From assembly GCA_000182565.2 (NCBI GenBank), contig KQ257456.1: DNA of 26,754 bases. The stretch is one strand, 5' to 3'. The position numbers were made by a program, and so were the translations under genes. The stretch is from Spizellomyces punctatus DAOM BR117 (Eukaryota). Of this stretch, positions 4,203-26,754 are shown in pieces (the first letter of the stretch is position 1; the number at the start of each line of letters is the position of its first letter). Under the pieces are notes generated by a model. It worked only from the letters and a program-made list of their open reading frames with translations. It made no database searches and had not been told where the DNA came from.

Positions 4203-5494
4203 AGTGAAATTACTTGAACGGTGGCAATAGAAAAGGACCGAGTTGCGAAGATGATTCCCGTGATATTTTGATTCTAGTCGCGCGCAAGGTCAACGTCCCA
4301 TAGGGCGAGACGCTCAATTGGAAGGGCTAGGAGGGACGCTCAAGTAGCGAAATGGACGGACGGTAGCTCGAACAAGCACTACTCGTTCAACGTCGTTAAC
4401 AAGGCCATCGACACGGAAAGTAAAACGACGACGGCAAACGGAAGACGAGCCTGGTGGGGGGAAGCCGAAAGCAAGTCTTTTTTTTTGTCTGTTAGCGTCT
4501 GATTTTTTTTTTGCCTGTTTTTGCCTTTGACTTTCCGTACACAACGTTAGTGGCCATCGAGAGGCTTGAAAAACCCAATTTGATTAAATCGACAAATGGC
4601 GTGGGTGTTTAAATTGCTGGCAACATAAGTTGCAAAGTGACAATTGTCACCAGACATCATCAACATTGTCATCATTTACCCTTTCTTTCCAAATTGTCGC
4701 ACATTTCTTGCATTGATAAATGTTATACTTCAAGCAAAGCATTGCACCATCCAAGTCTGCCAGCATGTCCCCATGGGAGGTCTCATCGTTTTTCCTTTTA
4801 CTGTTCAACTGTGGTTTAACAAAAGGAGGTGCCCGATCTGCGCACATCTGGGGCGTTGGCAGGCAGGCAAACGAGCAATACACCAGTACTGCACAGAAGG
4901 AAAGTCTCTTCTTTGGCAATGAAAGACGCAAAAAACAAAGTTCTGGCTGGTACCATTGGTACGGCAGAGGAAGTTGGACACGTGTGTTACGCTACTGACA
5001 AATTTGCAAAACGAAAAGAAAAATCTGTCCTTCCCTGTCACTTTGTCTCGTGGACAGGCTCCTTTGCCTCCCGTAAGTGTGGCTCTCTCTCACAGCTCCC
5101 ATGCTCCGTAGTCGTGAGACATGCAAGTCAGGTGGGCTTGTCAGTGCAGTGCGAAGAGGAAGTTGCAGTGCCTCCAAGTGGAGAGGAGAGCATGCAAGTT
5201 ATGGCATTACTCTGGTCGACACACCACCTGTGGCCTTATCGCAAGAGCTGCGCACCAGGGGATAAGATAACAGAGTAGTAGTGTACACCTGATGTATGGC
5301 TTCCATCCACATCTTGAGACAGAGTTTAACCAAAGTTCATTGCGGAGATTCTAATTTCCGATTACCATATCCCCAACTGGTCATATAACTTAAAAAGGCA
5401 AATGGTGCATTTTGCACGTGATCGTAATTAGTCCGTATTAGGCATAATTAAACCATTGGAACCAGAAGCGGTTTTAATTTACGCAACCCGCGAA

Positions 5495-6044
<550 letters not shown>

Positions 6045-6422
6045 GCAAGTTGATTATCTTCGCTCGGCGTATGCATTTTGGCTTTGTGGCTCGGTGGGAG
6101 CCTGTGTTTTGTCAACACTTTTGAAGCCTGTGTTTCTTTTTGTCAACACACTTTGAGCATCTTATTGTATAAATTGATACCTTTTGTAAATACAAACCAT
6201 GCAACACCACATCAACCGCGTAATTGTGCGGAAGTTTTGTTTTTTTGACCGTTATCGTTATCTATTTTTTTTCTCTGAGTGGCTCGAGTGGCTCGACCAC
6301 CAGCTGTGACGCGCTTGGCGCGCGATGAACGCATGAGCAAGTGATTTCAGGGGTGTATCCTTTATTAGGATCCTTTCTACTTAGATTCTACATAGAAACC
6401 ACGTGGCAGCAAGGGGTATAGT

Positions 6423-6495
6423 GGGCCTATGGCCCAATGGACAAGGCGCCTGACTACGGATCAGGAGATTCCAGGTTCGAATCCTGGTAGGCTCG
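6423..6495 (+). tRNA. tRNA-Arg(ACG): Cytosolic tRNA-Arg(ACG), intronless
   Basis: Full cloverleaf: acceptor GGGCCTA/TAGGCTC, D arm with AATGG, anticodon stem CCTGA/TCAGG around CT-ACG-GA (ACG at 6456-6458), T arm CCAGG-TTCGAAT-CCTGG, discriminator G. Confidence 0.97.
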
Positions 6496-6514
6496 ATCTA
6501 TCGACACTACGATC

Positions 6515-6523
6515 TTTTTTTTT
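6515..6523 (+). terminator. RNA polymerase III terminator (T9) for tRNA-Arg
   Basis: Run of nine T residues about 20 nt downstream of the tRNA 3' end. Confidence 0.8.
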
Positions 6524-7044
6524 CAAACCTTTTTTCATATCCCCTCTTGGGTGGCTGATGGACGCATCTTTTTCTGTTTCATCGTGACAAGGTGGACATG
6601 CAACACTGGAATGGATCGAGGCAGAACGGCATCATTTTAATGACCACACCATACCCACATGGTGCACACACAGAGATTTATACACACACACACACACAAG
6701 TGGTTTTGTCCTACTGGTGAACCATGAAGCATTGAGCACATCTAAGCAATCCCCATATATGCTCGTGTTGCATATTTCTTTTGTGGTTATTGGACCGACT
6801 CACCGCATTGCCTCGCTTGACATTCCACTGGGAAGCCCCATTGTAACAACTGTAATCACTTTATAACTCTATTAGACAAGTGCAATCAGACATGTCCATA
6901 TGTAAATGCCATGGATAGCCATGTTCTAGTGAGATGGAGAGAGATGGAGAAAAAGAAAATCGGAAGCGCGTCATGTTCGCAGTTCTAGTTTAAACTCGTT
7001 TGTAGATGGCACAGCAATTACGTACTTTCCCCCCCCTCGTTTTG

Positions 7045-7046
<2 letters not shown>

Positions 7047-7076
<30 letters not shown>
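7047..7076. repeat. (TG)15 microsatellite
   Basis: Perfect dinucleotide run upstream of OGT. A shorter (AC)n run lies at ~6682-6698. Confidence 0.95.
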
Positions 7077-7078
<2 letters not shown>

Positions 7079-7657
7079 TCCTTTGCTCATTTCGCATCTG
7101 GTGCTGGTTCCTTTCCCCAGATTTTTATTTTTTTTTTATTTTCTTTCTTGTTTATTCTGTTCAATTATCGTATTGCTTTTCAAACGGGCATTCATCATAA
7201 CAAGGCTTTACAAAGGTTGAAAGCAAAAAGGACACACACAAAAGGGCCGACGGAAGTTGGGCGTCAGTTTAGGATTTTTGTTCCCCTCCGTGTGTACGTT
7301 ACGCCAAAAAAAGTGACGATTAGCCGCCTAGCCGTGTGCGCGTGAAAAAAGCCCCTTCACCCCGCCGGGACCCACCCAACTGCCCACCACCAACACACAC
7401 ACAGATAATCCAACACGACGACTGCAGTCTGCCCCAAACACTCGCCCCACATCTCATTGTTCGTCGAGCCCAACTAGCAAAAGGCACCGCAGACTCGGGA
7501 CCTCCGACTTCCTCTTGAAAGGAGCAGACCTTGCGGACTCTGGTGACTTTTTTGTGGGGAGCAACAAGGCATCCGAGAATGAGGCGGGAGTGATTCAACA
7601 GAGACCTTTTCATTCCTCAAACAAGAACAGCAACAACGTACACAGCAAGTAGCGCAA

Positions 7658-10600
7658 ATGGCCGTTCCCCAACAACCTCCTTCTCCTGCCAATATTGCAA
7701 ACTCACATTTTGGTAAGTAGTTGAAATGCCTGAGTGATTCCCAACTGAGGTACTGGTGAACGGCGTCGTGTGTATGCAACGAGGACTGCGAGTCGACCCT
7801 GCACAAGGCCCGGAACCTAGGCAAAAAGGATTTGCCATTCTGCTTCTGCACAGTCAGTTCTCGACCCGATTTACAGAGTGCACCGCACATCCACATGCTA
7901 CCTCAATCTTGCCAAAGAGATTTGGGACTAACTTTTCCCTTTGGCGGTCTTTTTCTTGCTAGGGTTTGGGCATTACCGAAGGGATTCACGGACCATGATG
8001 GGGCAGACGGCAACCGACGCTCGCTTGCTACTCGAACGGACCGGTTCCGATCTTCAAGCCTACTCCATTTCTACCACACAGACGAACGTTCTTCCCCAAC
8101 GGACAGCCTCCAGACAACCTACCTCGTACCCTTTACGTAGCAGCTCTACCACCTTTGCCCGGCACGTTGGATCTGCAACACTGGCAACTCCTGTTCAGTT
8201 GTACGCGCCGTCAAACACCGATCCAGCATTGTACGCACAATTCCCACAACACATGCTAAAGCCCATTGTAACGCTGCCACCTGTCCAGCAAACTCAGCAG
8301 CCAGCATTTCTCGGTGGCGCTTCGGCCGAAACCTACCATCAACACTTTCAATCTTCCCTTCAGCAAACGTACGCTCAACCGCATGCACCACAACTGCAAC
8401 AACCAACAGCTGCACCATCTTCACAATCGCTGCAACTCTTGCAGCCGCTTGAGCCTCTGCAATCCCTCCAACAATCCGTTCAACAGCCGCAACAGCAGCA
8501 GCAGAATCACCATCATGCATCAACGCTCTATTTTCCGCAGCACAACCTTCCCGCCGGAGCCACGGCCGTTGTCCCCGTCGCCCCCGGCGCCGCCTATCCC
8601 CTCCACGCCGTCAATTACATCAATGTTGCGAATCCAAGCCCGTCATTTGCCCACTTTACTGCCAACATTACCCAAATGCCGAATCAAATCTACTATCAGC
8701 CGATCATGTATCACCAACCTCATCCGATGCCGATGCATGCACTCGCATATGGCGGTTTGGCATACAGTGGTCTTGGAACGCAGGAAATCGTTGGAGGCTC
8801 GACATTTAGCGCGCTGGGAACATCAGGTATTGATGGGTGTAGCATTGGAACAGGGTCCATACCTGGATCGGCAATGGGACTGGTTCCTACGCCTGCTTCC
8901 ATTCCTCCGACCAGGGAATGGTTGGGTATGTCCTTGCAAATTTTAGTAGTGTCGCGGTGAGGTGATTGACTTGTTCTTTCCTCTATAGAACAAGGACTCA
9001 GTATAGCTCATGACAAGTACAATGCGGGCGACTTTACCGGTGCCTACAACCTACTGCAGACGCTGTACCAAGCGAATCAAGCACATCTTCCTACGCTACT
9101 CCTACTCGGATGCACATGTTATTCGCTGAACCTGCATCAGTTGTCCATTCATTACAACAATCTGATCCTGCAACTGGATCCGCACTTTGCAGAGGCGTTT
9201 TCCAATCTCGGAACAACCTATCGGGTATTATTCATTGTATGTTTATCTGTATGGGCGTCTACTAATCGTGTCCTGCAGGCTATGGCGCAGAGTGGTGTAA
9301 ACAATACCGGAAGTCCAAGCTACAACCTGAACATGGCTGAGCAGTACTATCGCATTGCGATTTCAATTCGACCAAAGTACTGGGATGCGAGTATCAATTT
9401 GGCAGGATTGTTAAGCGCCCATGGCCGTTATGATGAGGCGATTCTCGTGTACACAGCATATGAGCGCGCTCTGGAAGAAGAGTTTGAAGCGGATGAGAGA
9501 TTTGATTTGATGGTCGATATGGCCAGAGACGGCGCAGAAGACAGTGACTTTGTGACACTGCTGACCGACATTGAGAAGCGACGAAAGGCGCGCATCACCT
9601 ATGAAAAAGCATCCGGTGCAAGTGCCACTGGTGAAGGTAGCGGCTGGACAGATGGACGGCGTCGAGATTTGTATTACGCAAAGGCCAGTCTTATTTATGC
9701 GATGGGGGATATCGTTCGCGCCAAGTACGAGTTTATCAAGGGTCTGGTGGCGATTGGTCTAGATCTTGTTTCCGTCTATTCTCAGGCTAGCAGTGGGGTG
9801 CTTCCTCTTCCAACCGTCACACCAGCGCAATCTTTGGTGGCCTTGCAACAGCAGCAGCAACTTAAGGGCCTCAAGATGAATCTCGAGTACAATAACACAG
9901 CCTCAGCCATCCTGCAGACCCTGGCAAAGATTTACCAGGACGCCCAGCAAATGGCGTTGGCTGTGTCATTCTACTACATTGCGCTGAGTATCTGTCCCAA
10001 TGCGAATACCTGTAACAACATCGGTATTCTGCTTGCTCAACAGCGATTACACGAAGCTATTTCGTGGTACGAGTTTGGACTGAACCTCGAGCAGAACCAC
10101 GTGCATCTTTTGACGAATCTAGGGTCTGCGTTGAAGGATCGAGGGCAAGTGAATGAAGGGATCGCGTGCTACCAACGCGCAATATCTATTCAACCCGATT
10201 TCTTTATTGCCTTGGCGAATTTGGCGAATGTGTATAAGGATTTGGGTCGTGTGGAAGAAGGAATTGACCTCTACCGACGAGCCCTTAAAGTCAAACCCGA
10301 TTTTATCGAAGCCTTTTGCAATTACGTCAACAGTCTGTTGTTTATTTGCGATTGGGAAGAGCGGGATAACAATCTGAAGAGGATCTATCAGATTGTTGAT
10401 CAGCAGCTTCGAGATGGTCGCAAACAGGTGCCGAAATTGGTACCGACTGTTCTACCATTCCACACATTTACCTATGCCAGTTTGTCGGCTTGGATGGTCC
10501 GTGAAATCAGTCGGCGGAATGCGGAGCGGGTGCTGTGGAATGTGTTGGTTAGCGATTGGTTCCCTGGATTCCCAGAGCGACCTGTTAAAGGGGCGGCTGG

Positions 10601-12952
10601 ACTATTGGATGGCAGAAATAGTAGAAAGGTTTCAACGGTGCAGCCTAATGCAATGGAGCAGGCAATGCATTACCCGTATCCTTATCCACCACCACCACCG
10701 CCGAGCCCACACATTCGGGTTGGATACTTGTCGTCCGACTTTAATAACCATCCACTGGCACATCTCATGCAGTCCGTGTTTGGTCTGCACGATCGGACGC
10801 GGTTCCAAGTTTATTGCTATTCGCTTTCTCCCACGGACAACTCACCATATCGGGCCAAAATCGAACGGGAAGCAGATGTCTTTTTGGATGTGTCGAGTTG
10901 GTCCATCAAGGAAATCGTCGAGCGTATCGCATTGGTGGATCAGATTCATATTCTGTGCAATTTGAATGGGTACACCAAGGGCGGACGTAATGAAGTCTTT
11001 GCTGCGCGTCCGGCTGTTGTGCAGATGCAATTTATGGGATTCGCTGGGACGATGGGCGCGGGTTCCGTTTACGATCCTGACAATGATAAGGAAGGTGATA
11101 GCAAGGGGCAATCAAAGATTGAGGAGTTGTTAGATGATGGAGACGATGTAAATACGACTGAAGAAGACGATGATGAGATGTTTGACAATGTCAAGGAACG
11201 GTGGTTGGACTATCTTTTAACGGATGAAATCGCATCTCCGCGCAAATTTGTGTGTGGTGAACCGCTGGAAGCAGACGAAAAGTTACCTACGGATGGTACA
11301 AAGCTGATACATCGTGGTCTTGTCCGCCGAAAGGATGATGCAAATAGGATTTACACGGAAGGGCTGGTGTTTATGCCCAATACCTATTTCGTAAACGATC
11401 ATCGGCAGGGTTTCCGGGAGACGGAGGACGCTGAAATTGATGACATTGTCATGGGCCACGGGGCGTCTGTTAAGGTGGAAAACGGCAAAACCGGCGATGT
11501 GGATGAAGGATATGATAGCGATGATGATTTAACAGAGGATGAGCGGTGTCGCTGGCGCAAAGAGCAGATTCGGCGGTTGAAGATGCGGGGAGAGCTGTTC
11601 CCATGGTTGCGGGAAGATACTGTTATATTTGCAAATTTCAATCAGTTGTACAAGGTATGCTGTGTTGGCTTTGCTTTCTCACTGGTTCATTTTAATAATT
11701 CTTTCGGTGCTAGGTGGATCCTGAGATTTTTGCAACGTGGATGAGGATTATCAAACGCGTTCCAAATTCAATTCTTTGGCTGTTACGCTTTCCTCCTGCA
11801 GGAGAAGCGTATTTGAGAAAGAAGGCTGTGGAATTGGTTGGAGAGGCGGTTGCTCAGCGGCTCATCTTCACTGGTAGGTAAAAATGGTTATGTCTGTTTG
11901 TATAAGCGTGTGTCACCAATTGAATTTCTGCAGATGTGGCACCCAAACATTTGCACATCCATCGCGGCCGTATTGCGGATGTTTTCTTGGACACGCCAGA
12001 GTGTAATGCCCACACGACTGCCGCAGATATTTTGTGGAGCGGAACTCCGGTCGTCACTTACCCAAAATATGATTTCAAAATGTGCAGCCGAGTGTGTGCA
12101 TCCATTGCGTATGCAACGGGCCGATGGTCGCGATCGGATCTAGCTGGTTTGGAAGGAGGGATCGAGACTGCTGAACAAGCCCGGGCGGGTATTCGGTTGG
12201 AAGGTGTGGAGCGGCTCAAGGACAAGTGGCTTCTGGGTCATTGGATGGTTGTCAAGAGTTACCAAGAGTACGAAGATATCGCTGTGAGACTCGGGCGTGG
12301 AATGAAATGGGGCTGGAAACGCGTTGACGCTTGGAGAGATCATGTACGAATGACCAATAAGCGACCGGTGGTCAATACCATTGTGGAATCGAGGGCTATT
12401 TCTACTAATCCGGCAAGCACGAACCCGCGTATCCCCCCCAGGCATATCTTGGCTCAACCACAAACGTCGCAAGAACACAGTCGACAAGTTACTCGATCTC
12501 AAATCAGCCATACCAGCAACAGCAGCCATATCCCCATGTCGAGCAGTATTGCGTACGTCCTGAACCCGACCACCGTACCATGTCTTCCAGATACACCCCC
12601 ACCGCATCTGGCCCCTGCTACACCCTTTTATCCCACCCGCCCCACCTGCACGCACATTTACACGCCCTTGTCAAGCACCCTCGCCATCCGCCTCCGCCGC
12701 CGTCTCTTTCTGACGCGAGATGAGTGCGCCCTCTTTGATACACCTCGTTGGGTAAGAGGTCTTGAACAAGCCTTTGAGAAGTCCTACGCGCGGTGGGCTC
12801 AGGCGTGGGCAAGACTTGAGCGAAGACGGGGCATCCCGTCTAGCACGAAACGGAAGCAACGGGCCACGTCACGATGTTTGTGGATTAGGGACACTACTGT
12901 CCATGGTGGACGGACGGGGCATTTGAATTCTATTCAAACCGAGAGGATGTGA
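7658..12952 (+). CDS. OGT: O-GlcNAc transferase (GT41; TPR repeats plus two-lobed catalytic domain), ~1602 aa
   Basis: Exons 7658-7712, 7963-8925, 8989-9224, 9279-11654, 11714-11873 and 11934-12952 total 4809 nt and stay in frame. Intron 1 has a GTAAGT donor and GACTAAC branch site; the alternative start is ATG 7995. TPR motifs include AHDKYNAGDF, AEAFSNLGTTY, LTNLGSALKDRG and ALANLANVYKDLG. Catalytic motifs are RVGYLSSDFNNHPLAHLM, NLNGYTKGGRNEVFAARPA, GFAGTMGA, FANFNQLYKVDP, ILWLLRFP and DVFLDTPECNAHTTAADILWSGTPVVT. Confidence 0.95.
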
Positions 12953-13724
12953 AGGGAGAGCTGAACATTGGGATACACAATGGATTGAGTTGTGTGTTTT
13001 ATTTTCTTGTGTAATTTTCTCTGTGTGTTTTATTTCTCTTTTTTTGTATGTAGTCTGGGTGGGATGTATCCTCAAGGTGAGAGAGTATAATACGGGTTTT
13101 ACAGTTGGGAATCATTGGGTGGAGTGTGTTTTGGGCGTGGTAGACTTTTTTTTTTTTTGTTGCGTTTGCTGTTTTTGCTGCCAGTGCGGTGCAAAACAAG
13201 TTTATATTTTCTTTTTTCCAAGATGTACTTGAGTTTGTATCAATGTGGGATTTCAACTTGTGTATGTCGGACTTTGAGGTTTTGCGTCCTTGTGGTTGAC
13301 GATCACCTTGTCGCCGTAAGTCATGTCTATGTCTGGTTGCCTGGATATCATATCTGGGCGGTGAAGCTCCTCCAGTGCCCGTTCATATTATTTTCAGTTT
13401 GCGACCAGAAATATGGGAATGATATCTGTTCATGTTTGTGCAGTACCACGGTAACTTATTAAAATACCAAGGATTATTCGATAGCGAACAAAAGACATGA
13501 AATGGAATAGAACTACTCTCAAGGTTGTCTGCGCTTGTTGCGAACAATCACTCCCCAAAGACCTCCAATTATCCGTTGTTCGTTGAGCAAAATGCACACG
13601 CATTACTAATGGAACAAACCAAACAAATCGCTTGCGTCGTAGCACGGATCTGCCTTTCCGGATGTTCCACTTGATTAGTAAAGCGGGTCGCGCAATATCA
13701 TTTCTCATCAACAATAATCAACAA

Positions 13725-13738
13725 TATAAAAAGGGGGC
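13725..13738 (+). promoter_or_regulatory. TATA box of GST gene (TATAAAAAGGGGGC)
   Basis: TATAAAAA lies about 100 nt upstream of the GST ATG. Confidence 0.55.
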
Positions 13739-13826
13739 ATCGTTACTTGTTGCATCACTGCATCATTCAACGTCTTTCGCTTAACGCTTATATCTCAACA
13801 AGCCTTTTTTCATCGTCCAGCTTATA

Positions 13827-14699
13827 ATGGGTATCAAGGTCCACGGAGCACCTTTCTCGACATGCACGCAGCGTGTTGCTGTTGTCTTGAGGGAGAAGAA
13901 CGTCCCTTTTGAAATTGTTCCCGTTAATTTCGCTGCAGGACAGCACAAGGTGGGTTTGGCAATTGTTTTATTTTTTTTCGCATTATTGTGTGTATAGAAA
14001 ATGAGTGAATTGTGTGATTCATGATTTTATGGTTGTGACAGAGCGAGGAGTTTCTCAAGTTGCAGCCGTTCGGACAGGTTCCTGTTCTAGAAGACGATGG
14101 GTTCTTTCTTTTCGGTGAGCGTGCGCTGGAACTTTGCAGTACGTAAAATGCTCCTACTGATGGGTTCCTATGTATGTTACCAGAGTCCCGTGCAATTGGT
14201 CGGTACATTGAAAACAAGTACAAGTCCCAAGGCACCTCGCTTGCGCCATCTGATCTCAAGGGTGCTGCCGTGGTTGAGCAATGGGCTTCTGTCGAGGTTG
14301 CCAATTTTGATCCGTATGCGTCAGGAATTGTTGCTGAATTAGTGTTTAAAAAGTGAGTAGGAGATGTCAGCGTGTTGCGAATGTCCGTGCCTATATGCTA
14401 ATGATGTTATGCCGCATAGATTGTTCAACCGTGGCGAACCCGACTTGGAACGAGTAAAGCAGCTTCGTGCAAAGCTGGACGCTACGCTCGACGTTTACGA
14501 CAAGATTTTGGCAAAACAACCCTTCCTGACGGGTCAGCAAGTGTCCCTTGCAGATCTTTTCCACTTACCCTATGGTGCCAAATTGTTTGTTGCTCAACAC
14601 GGTGATGCGATTACATCTCGGCCTAATGTGAAGGCTTGGTGGGAGAGGTTGACTTCCAGACCGACTTGGCAAGAGACCGCGGCAGCTGGCGCTCATTAA
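13827..14699 (+). CDS. Glutathione S-transferase, phi-class-like (214 aa; exons 13827-13949, 14042-14114, 14184-14352, 14420-14699)
   Basis: Translates to MGIKVHGAPFSTCTQRVAVVLREKNVPFEIVPVNFAAGQHK | SEEFLKLQPFGQVPVLEDDGFFLF E SRAIGRYI...VEQWASVE... | ...LDVYDKILAKQPFLTGQQVSLADLFHLP...RPNVKAWWERLTSRPTW. These are typical GSTF signatures (catalytic-Ser STC motif, PFGQVP, FESRAI, SLADL-HLP). Confidence 0.94.
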
Positions 14700-15552
14700 G
14701 CTTGTTATTGTTACCAATCTTAAAGGGCATTATCTTTGTTAGTTTTTGAAAACCTGAAAATGAATATCTAACATTTTAAGGATCTACATCTACTCAGCAG
14801 CTGTTTTTGGGTTGAATGCATGTGTCTCCTCGATTGTTTCCACCCGGGACGGAGCTCCATTGGGCTTGAAGCCACTTCTTTGTTTTACATCCCCACCATG
14901 TTTAAGCAAGTCTGTAGGGGCTGTAAGGTGCAATGACCCTTTGTCTCCTGTGGTGTGAACCCTGTGGTTCCTGCAAACAGATCGCGATTTGAAATTTGAG
15001 AATAATACGACTACGCATGGCTGAGTGCGTCTCACTGGGATCTTTTAGGTTGAAGGTTCACCACAAAAAGGGTAACACTGTCCAGGTCCGCCCCCATGTC
15101 ATGTCCACAGACGCATAATCAATCGTCGATACCATGAAGAAAATATCTGGTAGCGCGGCCACAAATAGCAAGCAACCCTGAGCATATTGTCGACGCAGTT
15201 CTTTGACGTTGTGTTCAAAAGTCGGTCAATAACATTTCTCCTGGGCCTGGTTGGGTTCTGTCCAGAACTTTTTCTGACCCCAAAATATAGACCGTTGCTG
15301 TTATTTTCCTCCCTCCGTTCTGAGTGCAAAACCCGCCCAGATGAACTTGAGCAGTTTTTCAGACTTTCTGTAACCTGCACTTACTCTGATCACTACCAAG
15401 CACTCGATTTTAAGCACTCACTGAATTGGGAGCTCCACGGAAAGCCTCTTGGGTCAGTTATTTTTCGTAAAAGTAAGATAGTATTATCGAAAAGACATTT
15501 AATCCGCTACTGTCGGTGCAAACAGAAGTACATTCTCTATCAACATCCAGCC

Positions 15553-16482
15553 ATGTCGGTATGCTCAGATGTATACAGTGACCCTGTGCTGACGGCCGTC
15601 TATAACAACAATCGGGACCTAATGATTTACGCACTCATTATGGCGGTCCTGTCTCTTGGATTTGTTTGGGATTATCTACCTAGTCTCCCCATGCGGGCGA
15701 GTCGATATGCCATAATTATTACCGCTGTATCGAACGTCCTGTGGACAATTGTAGAGATTCTCGACTGGACTTATCCTTGGTCCTGTCAAGCATTCGGCCC
15801 AAGGGGTCTAATTACCATGCAAATTCTTACGTTGATCTTTGACAGTATTGCGAACAGTGGCTTTGTCTTCTTCACCATCTACCGAACGGTGAAACTCTTG
15901 ACGAGAAATGAGCGAATTCACATGCTTTCGTCAACTGTGCTAGCCCTCCTCGCCGGCACGACGTCCATAGTCGCTTGGACAAATTACATCAAAAAGCTCA
16001 CCAGCGATGAAAGTATTCTCGTCGAAATATACGACAATTGGGTTATCATCTATTACGTTCTCTGGACAACGGCGGTAGAAATGGGTGCTTTGACGATAGT
16101 TTTGCTCAAAGTTTTTCAGGCCGCTATTGTTCGCAAGAGAATCACCAGCGTGCAGCAACAAAGTAACGCAAGCTTATGGCACGCGACGCTTGGAATTGCC
16201 ATCCGCTACGCACTCATCATCGTGCTCCAGTACTACAATCTCAAGTACTGGTTTTCAGCCACCCCCACAAACATTGCAACTGCGTGTTATTCAACCCTGC
16301 GTAGTATCATGGTCATTCTTACGCTTACAGACCAAGTGAAAGTACAAACCATCCTTGGTATGAACAATGCGAGCCAAGCGTCGACTGACTCAAATCCTCG
16401 AAATCCTGTGAGCAAAGCCTGTGCTACAGGGGCAGGCCGAGTAGGGTCGATTCTGAGGACTGATATACAGGATTCGGTTTGA
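15553..16482 (+). CDS. Intronless multi-pass (about 7 TM) membrane protein, GPCR-like topology, 309 aa
   Basis: The first ATG of the long open frame is at 15553 (CAGCCATGT); the upstream TTG-started extension looks non-coding. There are seven hydrophobic stretches, a Cys before TM3 (WSCQAF), FFTIYR at the end of TM3, a basic loop after TM5 and a polar C-terminal tail. Family not recognised. Confidence 0.7.
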   Translation: MSVCSDVYSDPVLTAVYNNNRDLMIYALIMAVLSLGFVWDYLPSLPMRASRYAIIITAVSNVLWTIVEILDWTYPWSCQAFGPRGLITMQILTLIFDSIANSGFVFFTIYRTVKLLTRNERIHMLSSTVLALLAGTTSIVAWTNYIKKLTSDESILVEIYDNWVIIYYVLWTTAVEMGALTIVLLKVFQAAIVRKRITSVQQQSNASLWHATLGIAIRYALIIVLQYYNLKYWFSATPTNIATACYSTLRSIMVILTLTDQVKVQTILGMNNASQASTDSNPRNPVSKACATGAGRVGSILRTDIQDSV

Positions 16483-16751
16483 GGACTTCGTTTCTGGAGA
16501 TGCTTTAATGTGTAGGGTTATTCTGCTACGCGTGTTTGAATATGTTTTGAAGGGTTACCTTGGATGAGAACCGTTGTCTGTAGGGAGCTCATTTATGTAC
16601 GGGCACATTGGAAGACTGAGTGCTCAACAGTTTAATATTATATTATTTCTGGTCGACTTTCCGGTGATGAGAGTACTGTTGTATATTATATATGTATCTA
16701 CATATTTCTCAGAAAATCATAGCCCTCTCTACATCTAACTTGTCATCATCT

Positions 16752-19700
16752 TCAACTCCAAAAAGGACACAGCGCCAATGCAGCCAGCCTGAAATGCATT
16801 TTCGCAAATGGCCAAAAAATAACCGTCAACGTGAGGAGAAATCCGACCATGCCATGCAACATCGCAATGAATATGCCAGCGACAATGATGACTCCATAAT
16901 TAACGAGAGCTAGATACCACTTGGGTAGCTTTCTCACTCTCCCTTCACGTTCTCGCTTGGGGTCCAATCCATATGGACAGACGGTCATTGGCACGCGACG
17001 CAGAATCCACCAAGCACCGGGAAGCAAGACGATCGTCAAAGCAACCAAGAAGGCGCTACAGATGTATACCAAGGCCAGAAAGAACCCTCCGAACAGTGCG
17101 AATAATCCATTGGCGATCATTGCAGTAATTCCTGTGATTCTTGACGTTTCTGTAAAGTATTTGAATGGTACTTTCGTTGGAGTCCTGTCACCCTCGTCTC
17201 GTGCATCCGCTTGACGTGCGAAATTCAGAAAAACTTGCTCCAGTGATGTCCGGCTAAGGGCATAGTCTTCGATGCCCGCATCTTGGACATTTTGGCGGTA
17301 GGCTTCGATGGCTTCGAACACAGTCGCGAGTGACCCAATGGAATGCTGCGAAATTTCATATCGTAGATGTCGGTTACCTTGTTCAACGAGCTGAGCGTTA
17401 GGGAACGTGTTTGAGACGAAATCTTGAACTTGAGAGGTTGACTGTTTCGATCTAGTCTGAAGATCGAGTTGGTATCCGGACCCGTAGCGTGTCCTTAGAT
17501 GTTGAGCACTACCGAGGCAGCGCAGTTGTCCAGCAGTCATAACTCCGATTCTGCGATCAGTGATCAGAATTTGAATAAAGCAACCCATGTACATAGATGT
17601 GCGCCGCGATATGATTACCTCGTGCTAATCGCCTCGGCCTCCTCCATACTGTGAGTTGTCAATATGACTGCATGCTCTTTCCTCAAGTCTTGGATCAGAT
17701 TCCACATTGATCGCTTGCTGACTGGATCCATTCCAGTACTTGGCTCGTCAAGAATGATGACCGGAGGTTTGCCAATGACGGCTATGCCAACAGATAGTTT
17801 GCGGCGATTGCCCCCACTGAGATGGCGACTCTGTTTGTCTGCATGGGGAACGAGGTCGAGCGACTGGAGAAGAGCGTTCACGGTCATTGTGATTTGTATC
17901 GTTGGGACACCTTTCAGCCGCGCGTAAAGTTCCAAGTGTTCTCGCGTGGTCAGCGTGGGCTGTGATTCAAGTTAGGAAGCGTACAGGAAACAAAGTAGCG
18001 AGTAAAACCATTTCTTACCAGTAAAGCGTCGAATTGAGGCGTGACACCCATTGACCGTTGTACCCTCGAGAGGTTGTCAAGAATCGAGAATCCATTTACA
18101 ACACAATCGCCTCCAGACGGCAGCTGATCGCCAGCCAAGATTGACAGCGTTGTAGTTTTTCCTATTGTCGGCTACATTGAGTGCCACGCTCAGTGTCGTG
18201 TGGTGATCAACGATGCTCACCTGCTCCGTTTGGTCCAAGCAATGCAAAGCAGTCTCCACGATTGATGCCCAAGGACAAGCCCTTCACCGCTTGCTTTTCC
18301 CTCCCATCCGCGTTGGCTCCATAGTATTTGATTAATCGTTTGATCAGAACTGCAGAGTCTTTTCCAGCTGCCTTCTCCACACGTTGTCGTTCTCTGACTA
18401 CATCCTCATCATCATCTTTGAGATCCTCTGCAGATCCTCGATGCGCTTGACGCTTTCGCAACGCTTTCGCGGACAACCACAGCACAAATCCATCCCACAT
18501 ATCGCTGCCGACCGCTCCAAAGAAAAATACAAAGCACTGTGCAATCTGGATAATAAGCACAAAAGCGATTGTCTCCCTAGGTGTGCGAAGCGCAATATCG
18601 CCAACAGTACAACGCAGTGGCCCATAGTTTGCAAGTGCTAGGAAGTTGTAAACAAATCCCGCGGCGGGACTGTAGACAGAGACGATACCAGTAACAAGAT
18701 TCAGCGTAGATTGCGGTGATTGAGCACCGTAGAAAAGATTCATCAACAGGGTAATGAAGAAGAAACCGGCTCCAAGCAGGATCGCAAGGATACTGCCAGT
18801 AGCACCGGCGGAAGTTTCAAATCGAGAGTGAAGCGCATACTGCCAGTGGGTAAAAACAGGCACAAACATAAGCTCACGTCAATAGTGGACACTCGAAAGG
18901 GAATGATAGACATACCCCGAATGCAGATGCCGACAAAAGGTACACTGTATGGAGGGAAACCATCAGTAACCAATAATGGGTGCGCATGTCGAATCTACAT
19001 CAAGGACTTACGTAAAATTGAGCAGAATATCCATCCCAACGCATCTTTGATCATGGGCGTCCTGAACGCTGCAAAAATGACGGTAGCAGCGGCAGCAATA
19101 GCAACGGCATTGATCACATCCCACAGCCAATAAGCCAGCCAATATGCCAAGGGCCTTGCCCCACTAACTCTTTGCTGATGCATCGTCTTGCCCATACGCT
19201 CCCTCACCAGCGATGCCGTTGACAGGGCAGGAAGAAGAGCAAAGACAGCAACGAGCATCAGGGCCCCGCCTATCGTGCCACCGTCTGACACGTCCATAGC
19301 GCGCGGGGATGAGAAGCGATGGATAGCTGAAGATATTGCATAACGACCTGCTGGGGCGGCTGGGGTATTGTTGAAACGGGAAGCGATGAAAGCATTGTGG
19401 GCCAGGTTGATAAGGCTTGCCTGAACCACAATTTCCCCAGAAAAATCTGCTTGTGCAGCGTTATATGACCCATCCCAGGTAGACGTGTCTGCGTTGGCGA
19501 CAAAAGTCGAGAACTGAAGGGCCGCACTGAAGTTGTATATGGAATTATCGACGTGAAATTGGTACGCTGTATCATCGGGCACCACAAACGGCTGCACAGT
19601 CGGGTCGACCAGATACACAATCGCATTGTCAGGCTGAACAATGAGAGGCTTATTCGACCAGTGGAGAGGAACGACTGGCTCTGCCGGGGAAGGTGTGCAA

Positions 19701-22700
19701 GTACCATCCAGGTTGCGCATCATCCATGCCACTACGATTGTAGCAACGATTGGCGCCACGAAACGGACGATGGGAAGGATTGGTTGTCGTCGGTTGAGGA
19801 AAACCACTTTACGGAAAAGAGTGTACGTCTGCTGGGCGAAACTTGGTAAGCGCTCTGCCTGGGCGCCAGTTTGGAACACGGTCTGATTCTTGCCAGCGAC
19901 ATTGATCACTGTCATCTCATGACCACTGGCATCTTGAAAAAATAATGAGGATTTGGGCAGTATAACATAGGAGGCCGACTGACATTACCAAGAGAGACCT
20001 TCTCGTCATGTCGTACAAGTGTAGACTCATCTTTCTCCTCAGCACTCACGGCGATTTTCATCAACACTTCCTCTAAACTAGTTACCGAAAGCTCGTAGTT
20101 TTCCACACCTAGGGCCAACCCCTTATCTCCCTCAAGACTCCTCAAAAGCCGCGGGAAACTAAATCTAGATTCTTTGGGCAACTGGAATGCAATTTCCCGA
20201 CCGGCCTCGCTCCGTAGTATCGCCTTCCCCACAAAGGTCTTTACAAGCTGTTCAATGGCTCCAACGTCCGACAGACCGTTGCGCAGAAGCGTTAAGGTGT
20301 AACCAACTCCGAAGCGTTCCTTTAAGAACATGGAAGTACCCCAAGCGCGAAGTTTGCCAACTGCCATGATAACGATGCGGTCTCCCAAATGATCTGCTTC
20401 GTCCATGAAATGGGTCGTCAGGACAACAGTGCGCCCTTCCTTATTCATTCTCACAACGTCCCAGATCGCTCGACGACTCAGAGGATCCATTCCTGAGGTA
20501 GGCTCATCCAAAATCACAATCCGCGATCCGCCTAGGTACGCAATTGCAACTGAGAGTTTTCGTTTTTGCCCGCCAGACAAAGTTGATACATAACTGTCTG
20601 CCTTTTCGCTTAGATCGCATCGGGTGATGGTTTGCTTTACTTCCAGTGCAACTCCTTGCCTAGCCGCCCCCTTCAAACCAGCGAAAAGTTGCAGATGTTC
20701 TCGGACTGTCAGGGTTGGCCATAAAACGTCATGCTGCGGACAAATTCCCAAGGTATCTTCGGCGAGTTTGGCATTTCGGGCGTCTCGAGGCTTCCTGCCC
20801 CGGAGGAGTGCCTCCCCGGCAGTCGGCGAGAGAAGACCTGTAAGCATGGAAATCTACGGCGGAAGAGGATGAGCATCACCACACCAATTCCAAGTTATGG
20901 AAGAGCACGGTAGCCATCTCACCAACGTGGTCTTTCCAGCTCCGTTCTTCCCTAGCAAAACCATTGTCTCTCCCTGATAAGCGTTCAAGGTCAGATCTTG
21001 AACCGCATGCTGAACTTTTCCCGTTGTCGGGTTTCGAAAGCTTCTGCTCAGATCTCGTATGCTGATACCAAACTGGCCGCTGCTAAGAGTATCTTCAATT
21101 AGCGGAGCATCATTGCCCAAAGGTGAAAAAGCCGTGTTGCGGATTTGATGAGCTGGGTCTTTCCTCCAGAACGAGTACCAAGGCTGATGTCCGCTTGACA
21201 CGGATGTGACAGTTATCTCCAAATACCATCCGAGACATGTGTATAAAATCGCATCAAGTACGAGAATGAGAAGACAAGTTGTAAAGCGAATGCCCTGATA
21301 TTCCTCTGTAGACGAGCTATCATTTTAGTAATGAACGTATTTTGCCTGGAAAGAAGGCTCCATACCGCTCCAATTGGCAAACTGGACCCCAATTAGCCGC
21401 CCTTCTTGATGTGCGATGACCCGGTTGGCGTAGACAAAAGAAAATGGCGAAATGAAAGAGAGCGCCACTTTTGCTGCAGGTCCGAGGTCCCACTGATTAT
21501 TGTTGATAAACATGGCAGCAGCACTGACGCCAGTAAACAGCCTTTGTATGTGACGCATAGCCGACAATGTTAGGGCAAAAACATAGCAAGCAGTGTTTGA
21601 GCAACTTACGCTATCGAAAACAGTCCACCTGATCGCGGCGACTTCATTAAGACTTCAAGAATAAAGGCCCAGCCAATGACCGGCAAGCTCGAGATAACAA
21701 GCCATAGAAACAATATGAACAGATTCGTCCTTGTATAAAATGTGACCTTCATGATGACCGCGGAGATCAGCCACGCTGGTAGAAACAACACGGTGTAGGT
21801 AACGAGCCAGCTGATGTTGTAGGATGTTCGACTGAGACCCATCATGAACATGCCCTCTCGAAGTTTCGACTATGTCATCCAGGGCGTGAGTAGATTTGAA
21901 TGGCCAAAATCGATCGTCAATATACATATCGAACAGCATACCTTTTTTTCCTCTAGGATGGCGGCCACGATCGAATAGAGCATCGGAAGAAAAACACATA
22001 TGAGCATACCACCAGACCCTATGATCTTCTGTGAGGAGTACGGACTATTTTATCCAGGTGAAAGCAACGTACATCCTTCCATGAAGGCATAGAACATCGC
22101 CTATTATAAATGATCACACCCAGCTGCTTAAAAACTAAGTGTCTGAACATGTACCGGGAAGTCCACATACCTTTACAGCGGCTCCCTGAACCTGCTGAGT
22201 CGAGACTTTACTTGCACTAAGCGTGCTAGCCAACGTTGGATGTATAACAGAAATGATGGATCTTTCAATTGCGACCTGGACATCGGCCATTGCTTCCTGG
22301 GGGAATTGCGAGGAGCATTAATATGTAGGCGAGTTTGCATTGTGTCACTTGAATGCGTACTGGAGGTTTGACTTGAAACCGCGCCCATTGACGGTCTATC
22401 GGATCCATTCTCAATGTATAATTCCATCCACCAGCAGAGGTCGGACCATGCAGTACAATGCCCGCCAAGCAGTCATTGATACGGCAATACTCATTCATTT
22501 GGTTATCGGAGGCAAACTGGCGAAGGCTGCCAGCGGACCGACTGAGCTCGGTGACAATCGCATTCACCTCGGGACTTGCAGCATCAATGACATAGCCGAG
22601 GGGCCCTAGATTCGATACTAGGTGGCGAATATCACTGTGGACAGGCTGAACACTTGTGTTTGCAAAGTTATTGAAATTGCTCCAACTAGTAGTGATCGGG

Positions 22701-22953
22701 AGAGTAAATAATCAAACGATGAGACTGATACTCTGAATGAGAAAGTGCTGTGGACTTACGTGTATACTACAAGGGCAATGACTACTAGAGGAAGCAGGAG
22801 TGCAATACAGAACTAGCTTACAATGACGAATTTAACATGGAAGGACTACCGTGTCTACGATCGTAAAGCTACCTGGGATGCTAAGGCCCGACGGCGGACC
22901 TGATATTCCTTTCTAACGAGTAAGCCTATGGGACGCAAAAAACCGCGCGCCAT
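16752..22953 (-). CDS. Full-length ABC transporter, subfamily A (TMD-NBD-R)x2, multi-exon, with an extra C-terminal membrane module
   Basis: ATG at 22953 ([22 protein letters not shown]). TMD1 contains EEKK...[21 protein letters not shown]1 has [45 protein letters not shown] and [17 protein letters not shown]1 has SLEEV. TMD2 contains [19 protein letters not shown]2 has [43 protein letters not shown] and [12 protein letters not shown]2 has [10 protein letters not shown]. Stop at 16752. Small exons between ~21900 and 22400 were not fully resolved. Confidence 0.93.
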
Positions 22954-24189
22954 GGTGAGACTGGTGATTGTCGTCTATGAGAAATGTAAAAGGACTTGTA
23001 AGAGATCAAACGGGAATATGTTGGAACTTGGGCGATAGGGTTCGTCGGCTTGATGCTGACCGTTTATTTATGAGATGAGTAAAATCGGCCATAGTGTTCG
23101 GAGGAGCCAAGACTTGGTTAGCGCCGAGCCCCAAGGAAGGCTGTGTTCATTTCTCTATTTATTTCTTTTTTTCTGCTTCAAATTGTCAGTGCTTTGGCGG
23201 TCCCTCCAGCACGACCATGCTGCCAAATGTGCTTAAGCAAGTAAATGGTGATTCACGGTTTGGTCGACAATGACTAAGCAAGCAGCAAAAAATTAACAAA
23301 AGTACAAAGATATTTGCATGCACGCTCTCCAGTCCAAACCTTCTCGTTTTCCTTGCTGTCTTGTGAAGTTCAGACATTCCAAAAACCTTCCTACTTCATT
23401 TACAAGTACGATTCTTGGCATTATCCGTGGCAGTGCCTACAAAGCCAAGACAGCGCGCAAGACTGACAATGCATAAAAAACGGAAGAAGAAAAAGGAACG
23501 CGCCCTAAAAACTTTTAGTGAGTCATTTAATTCCATGCTCTGGGCGGGAGTTTGATAATCGTGGCAAAATGGAAACTATGCCAGTCAACAACCTTCGAAA
23601 ACACACTCCAGAGCTACCTAACTAGAACTATTTGTTTTAGATATTTTCATCTGGGTATAGCGATGACTGAGAATTCACTAAGAAGCCTTGTGGTGTGCAT
23701 GCCCGTAGTGTTTGAGAGAATCGGGCATTGATAGCAGCTGCCGTCCCATCGGTATCATCTTCCGGCCATTAATACCTCTCCACTCTGGCAGTGTTTTTGT
23801 ATAGCCAATCCATCGCACAGCAGCTCCTGCAAAGAGTACAAGGCGTGATAAGTAGGAAACGAGATTGGCAGCATTTAAAAAAGATCTGTGATATGTAAGC
23901 TATGGGCTTGAAAAAGTGCAAGAGTATTCCATGTCTTTCCAGGGCGTGACGGTTGTAGTAGGGGGTTTTCGCCTTCTATCTAGTACACAGAGAGGGTGGA
24001 TTTTCACATATGCAGTTGTTATTAACGGTCCGTATATACATGGATTTACAATTTCATCTCTATGGTACAGCTATCGTGTATACAATGTATAACCCTCCAG
24101 TTCCTCTATGATGAGGTAGTGATGTTCGCACCACGCTCTCCGTAACATCGGGTACCTTCTCTTCCACGCTGAATCGGGGTTTGTGCATA

Positions 24190-24783
24190 TTAAGCGTCGG
24201 CAGCAGCCTTGCCCTTCGCAGCTTTCTTGGCACCAGCCTTGCCCTTCTTGGCAGCAGCCTTACCCTTCTTTGCCGCCGCCTTCTTGGCAGCAGCCTTAGC
24301 CTTATTCGCAGCTGCCTTCTTTGCACCCTTCTTCGCACCCTTCTTGGCACCCTTTTTGGCAGCCTTTTTCGCAGCCTTTTTGGCACCCTTCTTTGCAGCC
24401 TTCTTTGCAGCCTTCTTGGCAGCCGCATCCTCTACATCGCCAGCAGCGGCCGCGACTTCTGTCCCATTGTTGGCAGCTCCCGCATTAGGATCAAGAACCG
24501 CGACAGCGTTAGGATCGGCAGGAGCAGTCGCATTGTCTGCAGTGTTCGGATCGACCAAGGCTGCGGCGAGTCCAGCGCAGTCTCCACCAGTTGCACCGTT
24601 ATTGCAGTCAGCCTGAGCCAGGCCCTTGCCCTTACCCTTACCCTTACCGGCGTGTGGGGCTATAAACAGCAACAGCATATCAGTCCAAACAAGTCACGCG
24701 CGGCAAACAACAAAGATCCCCAACTTACAGGCAAGGGCAACTGCGGCGAGGACAGCAACAGTGAAGAATGAGAGCTTGACCAT
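24190..24783 (-). CDS. Small secreted Lys/Ala-rich repeat protein (174 aa; exons 24783-24729 and 24659-24190)
   Basis: MVKLSFFTVAVLAAVALA-S|PHAGKGKGKGKG... forms a classic signal peptide across a phase-1 intron (GTAAGT...CTGAT...TAG). It is followed by a two-Cys segment, three DPN units and about 75 aa of AAKK/GAKK repeats. TATAAAAA lies upstream on the minus strand (~24875-24882). Confidence 0.85.
24205..24425. repeat. Degenerate 12-nt coding tandem repeat (GCAGCCTTCTTK / GCACCCTTCTTN on +) encoding AAKK/GAKK
   Basis: Visible 12-nt periodicity at 24310-24425, decaying into 15-nt variants toward 24205. Differences between units are mostly at third codon positions of the minus-strand frame. 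Confidence 0.9.
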
Positions 24784-26384
24784 GATTGAATTTGCGTTGT
24801 AGTTTTTGTTTTGGGAATACGATGTTAAGGTCAGAAGTTTAGATCTGGGATCGGGATCTCATATTCCGTAGCTTCTTTTATAACCCAAGCCCAAGGGAAG
24901 TCAAGCGCAAAAGCCAACTGGACCCTAATGAAACAAAACCGCGATCTAATTGATTATTTAAATGTTCCACTAGCATCAAAACTATTCGATATCTCACCAT
25001 AACTCTTTTGTTTCAGGGGCTCCCGGAACACTATTGGGTACGTCAATGTGGTACCTATGCGGATCATCAACCGAAACAACCCCTGTGTTTGCATGTTTGC
25101 ACCCTTGACTTGCCTCCCTCCGTTTCCGCAACTATCGGAACCTTTGAATATTGAATTTCGATTATTTCTTGTTACCCCTACCGAACATATCCGTTATTAC
25201 GGGGTGCACCTGTGCTCACCAAACTTGTTTCGTCGCCGCTCAACATAAGGACAAAATTACGCCGAGGACCCCTATAATATGCAACGAAGGGCGATTCATC
25301 AGATGCTGCATTTGCGCCGCACTTAGACGGATAGTGCACGTTGCGTCTGCTGTGTCATTTTGTGTAGACATTCGTATTTCCAATGCCTTTCATGAAAGGC
25401 ATTCATCCCATAATTCTAGGATTACAAGTTGGAAATTCACAGATGAGAAGCGGATGCATTCAGCTTTTCTGAGGTACAATTGACACCTGGTGTGTAAAAT
25501 ATTTTTGGATGAGCAGTCACCAACTAGAAATATTGTCAGGTGTGACGAGGATAAGAATTAGTGGATTGGTGGGTCTCTGTAAGGTCCCTCGTCGCCGGGT
25601 GTGTATGGTACCCCTATGATGAACCATCATACGTTACAATGCGGCAATGGTTTACGGGGAGTGTCATTGGATCCTCAGGTTGACAAGAAATAAAAACAAG
25701 ATCAAACGTGGCGATCCGCTGGTGTCCATTAATCAGCAATTGTGTAATCAAAGTTACACGCTCCTACACCGTTAAAATCACAATATGTAGGTTATAGTGC
25801 ATTAACTCAATCAAGTGCACTCAGTCATTGCCCACATCTTCACGTTAACAGCATGGTTGCAATCTCGGTGTTTAACAGTGTACAGTACAGTGTACCGTGT
25901 ACGAGTGATACACGGGATCTAGCATTTGTGTGAAGTGGGTGCACCCGCCAGCACTTTGATACGCATCTACTCTCCCACAAGAACCGTCTCACAGCAAACA
26001 GCTCGTTTTGCTCCTTTCTCCTCCGATGACTGCACGAGGCTCAACCAATAATGGACCAAGAAAGACACAGAAGCGGAACCTAGTGCATAAGACCAAAGGG
26101 AAGGAGCCACTAAAGAAGGGAAAGGAACGTTTCCAGGTATGAAGTTTTGTACGCGAGGGCAATATGCATAGAACTCAACTTCATGATGTTTCTTTTGGCT
26201 CTGGTAGGGTCGGGTCGAAATTACCGGCAATGTCGCTTACTTACTACTGGACCAAGCGCCAGGTGAAACGACTCAGTCTTGGGACAAGTAAGGCTACCAG
26301 GCTTTAATAGGTTTACCTTGCTCTAGAAATGAGAGAGTGGCGGATGCGTGATCATCGCAGGGAGAAGATGCACAAGACTTTTGC

Positions 26385-26754
26385 AAAGATCAATATAAAG
26401 GTATGATAATTTGGATTCAAAGTTGGATAAATTTTTATATATTGCAAGTATGTCATCCTTATTGGTAATTTTTCTATAGTAGTAGTATCTGATATAAATA
26501 ATACTTCATATATAAATTGTTTGAGGTTACAATTATTAGCATTATTGGTCTATCAACTAGATGTAGGTTATATTTAAACCTATCCAAGGGCTGGATGGGT
26601 CACCCAGAATTGGGTAACCTGTGGAGAAATTGGTAAACTCAGTGGACTCTAAATCCACCGTAGAAATACTTGTGGGTTCAAGTCCCACTGTAGGAACGAC
26701 TCTGATAAACCGGTTCGCTTAAAAAAGCATCAGATGACCTTGATTGAGGTTTCC
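26385..26754. other. Probable mitochondrial-derived segment (NUMT or co-assembled mtDNA); continues past the window end
   Basis: Abrupt shift to strongly AT-rich sequence at ~26385-26580, then an organellar-type tRNA with short GC-stemmed hairpins on both sides. The left boundary is approximate. Confidence 0.65.
26615..26696 (+). tRNA. trnL(CUA): Organellar-type tRNA-Leu-like gene with CUA anticodon (reads UAG); acceptor stem mispaired, so probably editing-dependent or a pseudogene copy
   Basis: D arm GAG-AAATTGGTAAA-CTC (26624-26640); anticodon arm GTGGA-CT CTA AA-TCCAC (26642-26658, CTA at 26649-26651); long variable arm GTA-GAAA-TAC; T arm GTGGG-TTCAAGT-CCCAC (26672-26688); 3' strand TGTAGGA plus discriminator A. 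The type-II architecture, A73 and GAAATTGGTAAAC D loop are bacterial/mitochondrial Leu features. Confidence 0.85.

Follow-up and report, generated by a model that had tools for sequence, protein, structure and literature searches.

Why should a tRNA whose D, anticodon, variable and T arms are all intact carry an acceptor stem that does not close? The question is raised by a leucine-type sequence with anticodon CTA at the right-hand end of the stretch of DNA analyzed here, 26 754 nt in length and hereafter called the window. ARAGORN called two tRNAs in the window, a tRNA-Arg(ACG) and, at 26617-26697, one whose anticodon is cta. The latter call agrees with a search of the whole window with Rfam, in which the tRNA family (RF00005) matched 26618-26695 with 34.5 bits, above its gathering score of 29 (E = 0.00075). 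With E-values allowed up to 10, the tRNA family alone exceeded its gathering score between 26200 and 26754; the Plastid-ycf2, mir-7360 and frnS rows obtained in the same interval were far under their thresholds and were attributed to chance. In the organellar check suggested by the initial annotation, the metazoan-mitochondrial modes of ARAGORN (-mt and -mtx), which are unsuited to a bacterial-like tRNA, returned no tRNA. The ARAGORN and Infernal output, read by eye, describes the body of a good type-II tRNA, with a long variable arm, organized as follows:

26615-26621, plus strand: 5′ acceptor strand TAACCTG
26622-26623, plus strand: T8 and G9
26624-26640, plus strand: D arm with stem GAG/CTC (by eye)
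26642-26658, plus strand: anticodon arm with a 5-bp stem and loop CTCTAAA, CTA being at 26649-26651 (by eye)
within 26659-26671, plus strand: variable arm GTA-GAAA-TAC with a 3-bp stem (by eye)
26672-26688, plus strand: T arm GTGGG-TTCAAGT-CCCAC (by eye)

ARAGORN, RF00005 and the pairing scores concur with the initial annotation that these arms belong to a type-II tRNA with anticodon CTA and a defective acceptor stem. No seven-pair stem closes the cloverleaf of the window copy. In the canonical register, TAACCTG (26615-26621) faces TGTAGGA (26689-26695), which gives one Watson-Crick and two G-T pairs out of seven and leaves positions 2-5 unpaired. Pairing improves to six of seven (three Watson-Crick, three G-T) when the 5′ strand is shifted by 2 nt to 26617-26623, and the unpaired positions 2-5, like the pairing of CCTG with TAGG upon a 2-nt shift, had been noted beforehand from the letters alone. 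ARAGORN adopts the shifted acceptor stem at the expense of the D stem, which it cuts to two pairs, and the Infernal alignment retains CCUG/UAGG alone in the acceptor stem, with three model positions deleted. At least six pairs out of seven in one of seven registers are also reached by 4359 of the 52 764 7-mers (8.3%) of the nuclear part of the window, so that the shifted pairing with TGTAGGA needs nothing beyond chance. Folded alone, the 82-nt stretch gives no cloverleaf and has an unremarkable energy (z = −2.08).

The sequence that precedes the AT-rich surroundings of this tRNA is nuclear DNA of a eukaryote, with the following features:

1..26388, unstranded: eukaryotic nuclear DNA, GC 0.478 (Pfam, tRNA-Arg, pieces from run X1)
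6422-6496, plus strand: tRNA-Arg(ACG), a standard nuclear tRNA with a fully paired cloverleaf, 62.1 bits (ARAGORN, Rfam)
9141-12952, plus strand: OGT-like gene with GT41 catalytic domain and TPR repeats (Pfam)
16752-20847, minus strand: ABCA-type transporter in several ORFs (Pfam)

According to the Pfam matches, the O-GlcNAc-transferase-like gene occupies two or more ORFs (9141-11744 and 11936-12952), which implies an intron at about 11745-11935, and the ABC_tran, ABC2_membrane and ABCA1 R1 domains of the transporter are likewise found in separate ORFs. A YccF-like membrane segment is also present in the R1-domain ORF, at the C terminus. Long ORFs are absent from the last 1.6 kb or so of the nuclear part, none of the ORFs overlapping 24800-26754 exceeding 111 aa from stop to stop.

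The last 366 bases of the window depart from this DNA in composition, and the limits of the foreign part were obtained from sequencing runs. Twenty-four runs were listed as matching 26100-26754, and the contigs of four of them (X1 to X4, which represent three samples at most) were aligned to 25000-26754. The 24 listed runs include several soil and rhizosphere metagenomes and two metatranscriptomes, which hold small shares of the words of 26100-26754 and were left out of account with regard to habitat or expression. We observed that every contig piece touching the AT-rich part fits solely inside 26389-26688. A 1822-nt contig of X1 matches this interval from end to end (record positions 548-847) and reaches well past both of its ends, while the contigs of X2, X3 and X4 match 26458-26688, 26470-26688 and 26389-26518, respectively. 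In each of the four the match has 0 other letters and 0 gaps, with no insertion or deletion inside 26389-26688. The right-hand end of the window is therefore divided as follows:

26388..26389, unstranded: left junction between nuclear and putatively mitochondrial-derived DNA, with no shared base (X1 and X4 contigs)
26389..26688, plus strand: segment putatively derived from mitochondrial DNA, 300 nt, GC 0.320 (exact contig matches in four runs)
26615..26688, plus strand: truncated tRNA gene, tRNA positions 1 to 65 (ARAGORN, Rfam, pairing scores)
26688..26689, unstranded: right junction, immediately 3′ of the 3′ strand of the T stem (X1, X2 and X3 contigs)
26689..26754, unstranded: right flank, 66 nt, presumed nuclear, GC 0.424 (GC content; absent from the contigs of X1 to X4)

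Upstream of 26389, the X1 and X4 contigs carry identical AT-rich 30 letters (...TTTAATGGAA) that are unlike the nuclear sequence of the window, the last bases being ...TGGAA in the contigs and ...CAAAG in the window. The left junction, previously guessed to lie around 26385, is thereby placed at 26388/26389. On the other side, the X1, X2 and X3 pieces all cease to fit at 26688. Immediately after this position the X2 contig reads CAGGCTCATTC... and the window TGTAGGAACGA, all of the first seven letters being different; the X2 continuation extends over 27 letters (CAGGCTCATTCTATTCTTTCCTTGACG) that are unlike the window, which there reads TGTAGGAACGACTC... Since organellar identity ends at 26688, TGTAGGA is foreign flank and not the 3′ strand of the tRNA. 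The initial annotation was right in recognizing organelle-derived DNA in a nuclear context, given the exact contig matches over 26389-26688 and the nuclear DNA to the left, but it assumed a tRNA copy with its own 3′ acceptor strand and overlooked this second junction, at 26688/26689, inside the tRNA. The segment is made up of 226 nt of AT-rich spacer, with a GC content of 0.283, and, 3′ of it, the initial 74 nt of trnL(CUA); neither the 3′ acceptor strand nor the discriminator base is present in the window copy. No base is shared at either junction, hence no microhomology, and no contig among those of X1 to X4 bridges 26388/26389 or 26688/26689. Their AT-rich flanks, together with the relative L001 described below, suggest that the X1, X2, X3 and X4 contigs are mitochondrial; no mitochondrial protein gene adjoining the segment was identified.

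Two further observations concern the organellar sequence itself. Its spacer contains two perfect hairpins found by eye, TAGGTT-ATATTTA-AACCTA at 26564-26582, upstream of the tRNA, and CCCA-GAAT-TGGG at 26603-26614, the last base of which directly precedes tRNA position 1. A role as processing signals is conceivable for both, as is an origin as mobile hairpin elements. In addition, the 18 nt found at 26392-26409 recur in the 1822-nt X1 contig, some 1.1 kb farther downstream (record positions 1656-1673), which indicates that the mitochondrial DNA contains a short repeat of dispersed type.

The same runs inform on the nuclear part and on the tail. X1 contigs also carry the nuclear intervals 25000-25175 and 25313-25531 with 0 differences, which makes X1 the same or a near-identical organism. 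A piece of X3 that aligns to 25784-25825, differing at 6 of 42 nt, was treated as a chance or repeat match. Cover of the nuclear part is patchy in every run, X1 being the best of the four with 14 of 30 bins, and the contigs of X1 to X4 have no cover over 25532-26388 or 26689-26754, a gap that was not counted against a NUMT. Compared with plasmids, E. coli genomes and phages, the 66-nt tail gave no match at E-values up to 1, and vector or host contamination was accordingly rejected as its origin. Nor is the tail a local repeat, as the words that it has in common with the remainder of the window measure at most 13 nt and are due to chance, and Rfam found no RNA family in it besides the tRNA match and one sub-threshold overlap. 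The first seven bases of this flank are the TGTAGGA that imitates a 3′ acceptor strand, and we are confident that the right breakpoint, falling inside the tRNA, accounts for the mispaired acceptor stem.

The acceptor stem of the intact gene can be read from X2, in which CAGGCTC, then A, directly follows the T arm; the source is one 258-nt contig, from run X2 alone, with a depth of 2.3. Scored strand against strand, TAACCTG and CAGGCTC pair as x|x||||, with five Watson-Crick pairs at position 2 and positions 4-7, and the only non-pairs are 1-72 (T/C) and 3-70 (A/C). Pairing as good as this in that register is found for only 549 of the 52 764 nuclear 7-mers of the window (1.0%). Non-pairs of the true gene are thus confined to acceptor pairs 1-72, 2-71 and 3-70, a rule that the window copy, taken at face value, breaks with its unpaired positions 2-5. 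On the strength of these two strands, the true gene fits the known class of mitochondrial 5′ tRNA editing exactly. Its mature 5′ end is predicted to read G-A-G once positions 1 and 3 have been edited. The tRNA also combines a type-II body, a CUA anticodon and A73, as expected of a tRNA serving the UAG=Leu code (table 16). The discriminator A73 is a mark of leucine identity, and an A follows the 3′ acceptor strand both in X2 and in L001. These results uphold the proposal of the initial annotation that this is a CUA tRNA of the chytrid-mitochondrial kind with 5′ mismatches of the editing type, the X2 strand giving non-pairs at 1 and 3. They do not support its suggestion that editing would go deeper than three positions, as CAGGCTC leaves non-pairs at 1 and 3 only and nothing points to editing beyond position 3.

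Independent support for this register comes from a relative. A scan of metagenome contigs with a pattern made of the anticodon and T arms returned one locus, L001, a contig of 1018 nt (GC 0.373) whose minus strand (1-1018) carries tRNA(CUA), tRNA-Asp, tRNA-Tyr and tRNA-Lys in a row. The tRNA(CUA) of L001 is 91.3% identical to 26620-26688 of the window over 69 nt, which puts the tRNA body far above chance, and its T8 G9 and D arm are identical to those of the window. It lies in the canonical register, with acceptor strands 5′ AAAGGTG and 3′ CGCCTGC, then A. Relative to TAACCTG/CAGGCTC, pairs 4-69 and 5-68 are swapped from C-G to G-C on both sides, and the stem of the variable arm covaries as well (GTA/TAC in the window, GTC/GAC in L001). 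These compensatory changes confirm the register and identify CAGG... as the proper partner of ...CCTG. Furthermore, non-pairs fall only within positions 1-3 in all four L001 tRNAs, according to ARAGORN drawings placed by hand in the canonical register (those of Asp and Lys being re-read for this purpose): at 1 and 2 in Leu, and at 1 and 3 in Asp, Tyr and Lys. A 22-aa ORF end in L001, considered as the possible end of a mitochondrial protein gene, had no Pfam match, and translation in frame 1 was uninformative. Judging from these tRNA sequences, L001 points to an uncultured relative that would combine 5′ tRNA editing with a UAG-reading tRNA.

A looser tRNA pattern gave 0 matches in viral contigs and two loci in genome contigs, L002 and L003, whose tRNA(CUA) have short variable arms and were rejected as unrelated to the tRNA of the window. 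The tRNA at L002:1324-1398 lies on a contig of GC 0.289 filed under a bacterial MAG, the ORFs of which stay open only if TAG is a sense codon, with seven in-frame TAGs in a 104-aa ORF at 1764-2078 (table 16); this contig may belong to a TAG-recoded phage or similar element. At L003:1472-1548, on a contig of a Planctomycetaceae MAG (GC 0.568), a fully paired tRNA with anticodon CTA is drawn by ARAGORN with eight pairs in the acceptor stem and six in the anticodon stem, and may be a bacterial amber-reading tRNA.

Taken together, these observations make it probable that a very recent NUMT, the right end of which falls inside trnL(CUA) so that the stem defect is a breakpoint, is the whole explanation of this locus. 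According to this scenario, a 300-nt fragment of mitochondrial DNA would have been captured while a broken chromosome was being repaired by end joining, with no part played by microhomology, and the right end of the insert would lie in a mitochondrial gene for a leucine-type, UAG-decoding tRNA(CUA), immediately 3′ of the T stem. Only tRNA positions 1-65 would thus be kept and the 3′ acceptor strand lost, TGTAGGA would be flank, and its partial, shifted pairing with CCTG would be a coincidence. In the mitochondrion, the intact gene TAACCTG ... CAGGCTC-A would be an ordinary substrate of 5′ tRNA editing, which would remove the first nucleotides and refill them in the 3′-to-5′ direction against the 3′ strand, whereas the nuclear copy would be an inert fragment. 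The 300-nt segment has two junctions, and diverges from organellar DNA at both ends with 0 differences in between, as expected of a NUMT. Its right flank is unlike plasmid, E. coli and phage records and unlike the mitochondrial continuation, and the GC content of the tail (0.424) is nearer that of the nuclear part (0.478) than that of the spacer (0.283), although 66 nt are too short to give this figure weight. We therefore favor a genuine NUMT residing in the chromosome, and lean, more cautiously, towards an extremely young one (0 changes in 300 nt), for which the species may still be polymorphic.

An assembly or cloning chimera, in which the 300-nt piece, perhaps together with the 66-nt tail, was joined artificially and is not part of the chromosome, is a possibility that we consider rather unlikely, though a substantial one. 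Zero differences in 300 nt, that is, 100% identity to organellar contigs, are the expectation for an artefact as much as for a young insertion. Chromosomal linkage is putative, as no contig of X1 to X4 bridges either junction or carries the last 66 nt. However, the nuclear cover of these runs is patchy everywhere, reaching only the 14 of 30 bins of X1 at best, and absent bridges consequently say little. Only 66 nt separate the piece from the end of the window, and if a contig ends there too, this is a place favored by chimeric reads. Moreover, the S. punctatus genome paper mentions misassemblies that required manual breaking in a Sanger assembly of a chytrid (PMC4991717), to which the window may belong. 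On the other hand, a chimera needs two artificial joins within 300 nt, its tail matches no vector, E. coli or phage DNA, and a degraded read end is contradicted by the fact that the tail is unlike the mitochondrial continuation. The reading of the stem is equal under a NUMT or a chimera: the copy is truncated, and the defect is the breakpoint.

Much less plausible is the proposal of the initial annotation that the window holds a complete NUMT copy of the tRNA, mispaired at positions 2-5 through the loss of about 2 nt or through deeper 5′ editing, a reading that we regard as very improbable. It draws on the unpaired positions 2-5 of the canonical register, on the six of seven pairs gained by the 2-nt shift and on the acceptance of the shifted fold by ARAGORN. 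This pairing is nevertheless what chance provides for 8.3% of nuclear 7-mers, and it costs a pair of the D stem. Moreover, organellar identity stops at 26688 and the real 3′ strand, which pairs at 2 and 4-7, lies outside the copy altogether; the absence of indels within 26389-26688 in any of X1 to X4 speaks against the 2-nt loss, and L001 is in the canonical register, its tRNA(CUA) having non-pairs at positions 1-2 only. A latent nuclear amber suppressor was also put forward. That the copy is a tRNA gene of this kind, whether latent or working, with Pol III transcription from the internal B-box-like GGTTCAAGTCC, is scarcely credible despite an intact tRNA body and a T arm that by eye resembles the B-box consensus, given that the 3′ acceptor strand is missing, that positions 8-19 match the A-box consensus poorly by eye, that the 58 nt downstream (26697-26754) have no T run of four or more, and that the 82-nt stretch yields no cloverleaf of its own; the complete tRNA, internal promoter and T-run terminator of a Pol III gene are not found together here, and transcription of the tRNA-like fragment from its T arm would appear to have no support.

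Our preferred interpretation, a recent insertion broken inside the tRNA gene, carries a caution: tRNA finders complete a cloverleaf from any flank when an organellar fragment ends within a tRNA gene. The register shift and shortened D stem that ARAGORN reports for the window copy are an example. A tRNA completed in this way looks aberrant and tempts one to postulate unusual editing or a suppressor; once both breakpoints are located, the anomaly is gone. The positive yield is the true gene, with non-pairs at 1 and 3 and a predicted edited 5′ end of G-A-G, which together with the four-tRNA cluster of L001 fits the established occurrence of 5′ tRNA editing and of UAG=Leu in chytrid-type mitochondria. 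If the NUMT is true, its youth would imply ongoing transfer of DNA from mitochondrion to nucleus in an early-diverging chytrid-like fungus, the donor mitochondria having a reassigned UAG codon as well as 5′ tRNA editing.

NUMTs are inserted when broken chromosomes are repaired by end joining, a process that may or may not involve microhomology (Hazkani-Covo et al. 2010, PMC2820518). The segment resembles such NUMTs in that it is short, organellar and sharply bounded, has non-organellar DNA on both sides, shows no microhomology and sits in a stretch without long ORFs. It differs from them in its zero substitutions, which imply either a very young insertion or an artefact. Three other sources, concerned with mitochondrial 5′ tRNA editing, state that the edited mismatches are restricted to the first three acceptor pairs, where the nucleotides are taken out and then resynthesized with the 3′ strand as template (PMC4284800; PMC3061083; PMC11404450). 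One of them, a review, names Acanthamoeba, slime moulds and the fungi Spizellomyces punctatus, Harpochytrium and Monoblepharella as organisms that carry out this editing (PMC4284800). With the Acanthamoeba and Dictyostelium systems, which rely on Thg1-like 3′-5′ polymerases (PMC4284800; PMC3061083; PMC11404450), the true gene shares mismatches at 1 and 3 and a 3′ strand suited to serve as the template. The lineages are different, and the present case is known from a DNA sequence.

All of the biology invoked here is already documented, be it the mitochondrial tRNA-Leu(CUA) of chytrid type, its editing at positions 1-3 or the possible NUMT. S. punctatus, the closest system for comparison, reportedly has a mitochondrial tRNA-Leu(CUA) and 5′ tRNA editing, findings said to be those of Laforest et al. 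in 1997 and 2004. The window differs from that tRNA in holding positions 1-65 only, outside the mitochondrial genome, and in being known from DNA alone. The mitogenome of S. punctatus is cited as a user of the UAG=Leu code (PMC6821328), and the published GC content of S. punctatus, 47.6% (PMC4991717), is close to the 0.478 of the nuclear part of the window, a similarity that is suggestive only. The tRNA described here has the CUA anticodon and the long variable arm of the S. punctatus tRNA-Leu(CUA), and the non-pairs of the true gene are likewise confined to the first three acceptor positions. The tRNA cluster of L001, with its non-pairs confined to positions 1-3, extends this likeness to the mitochondrial tRNA editing of S. 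punctatus.
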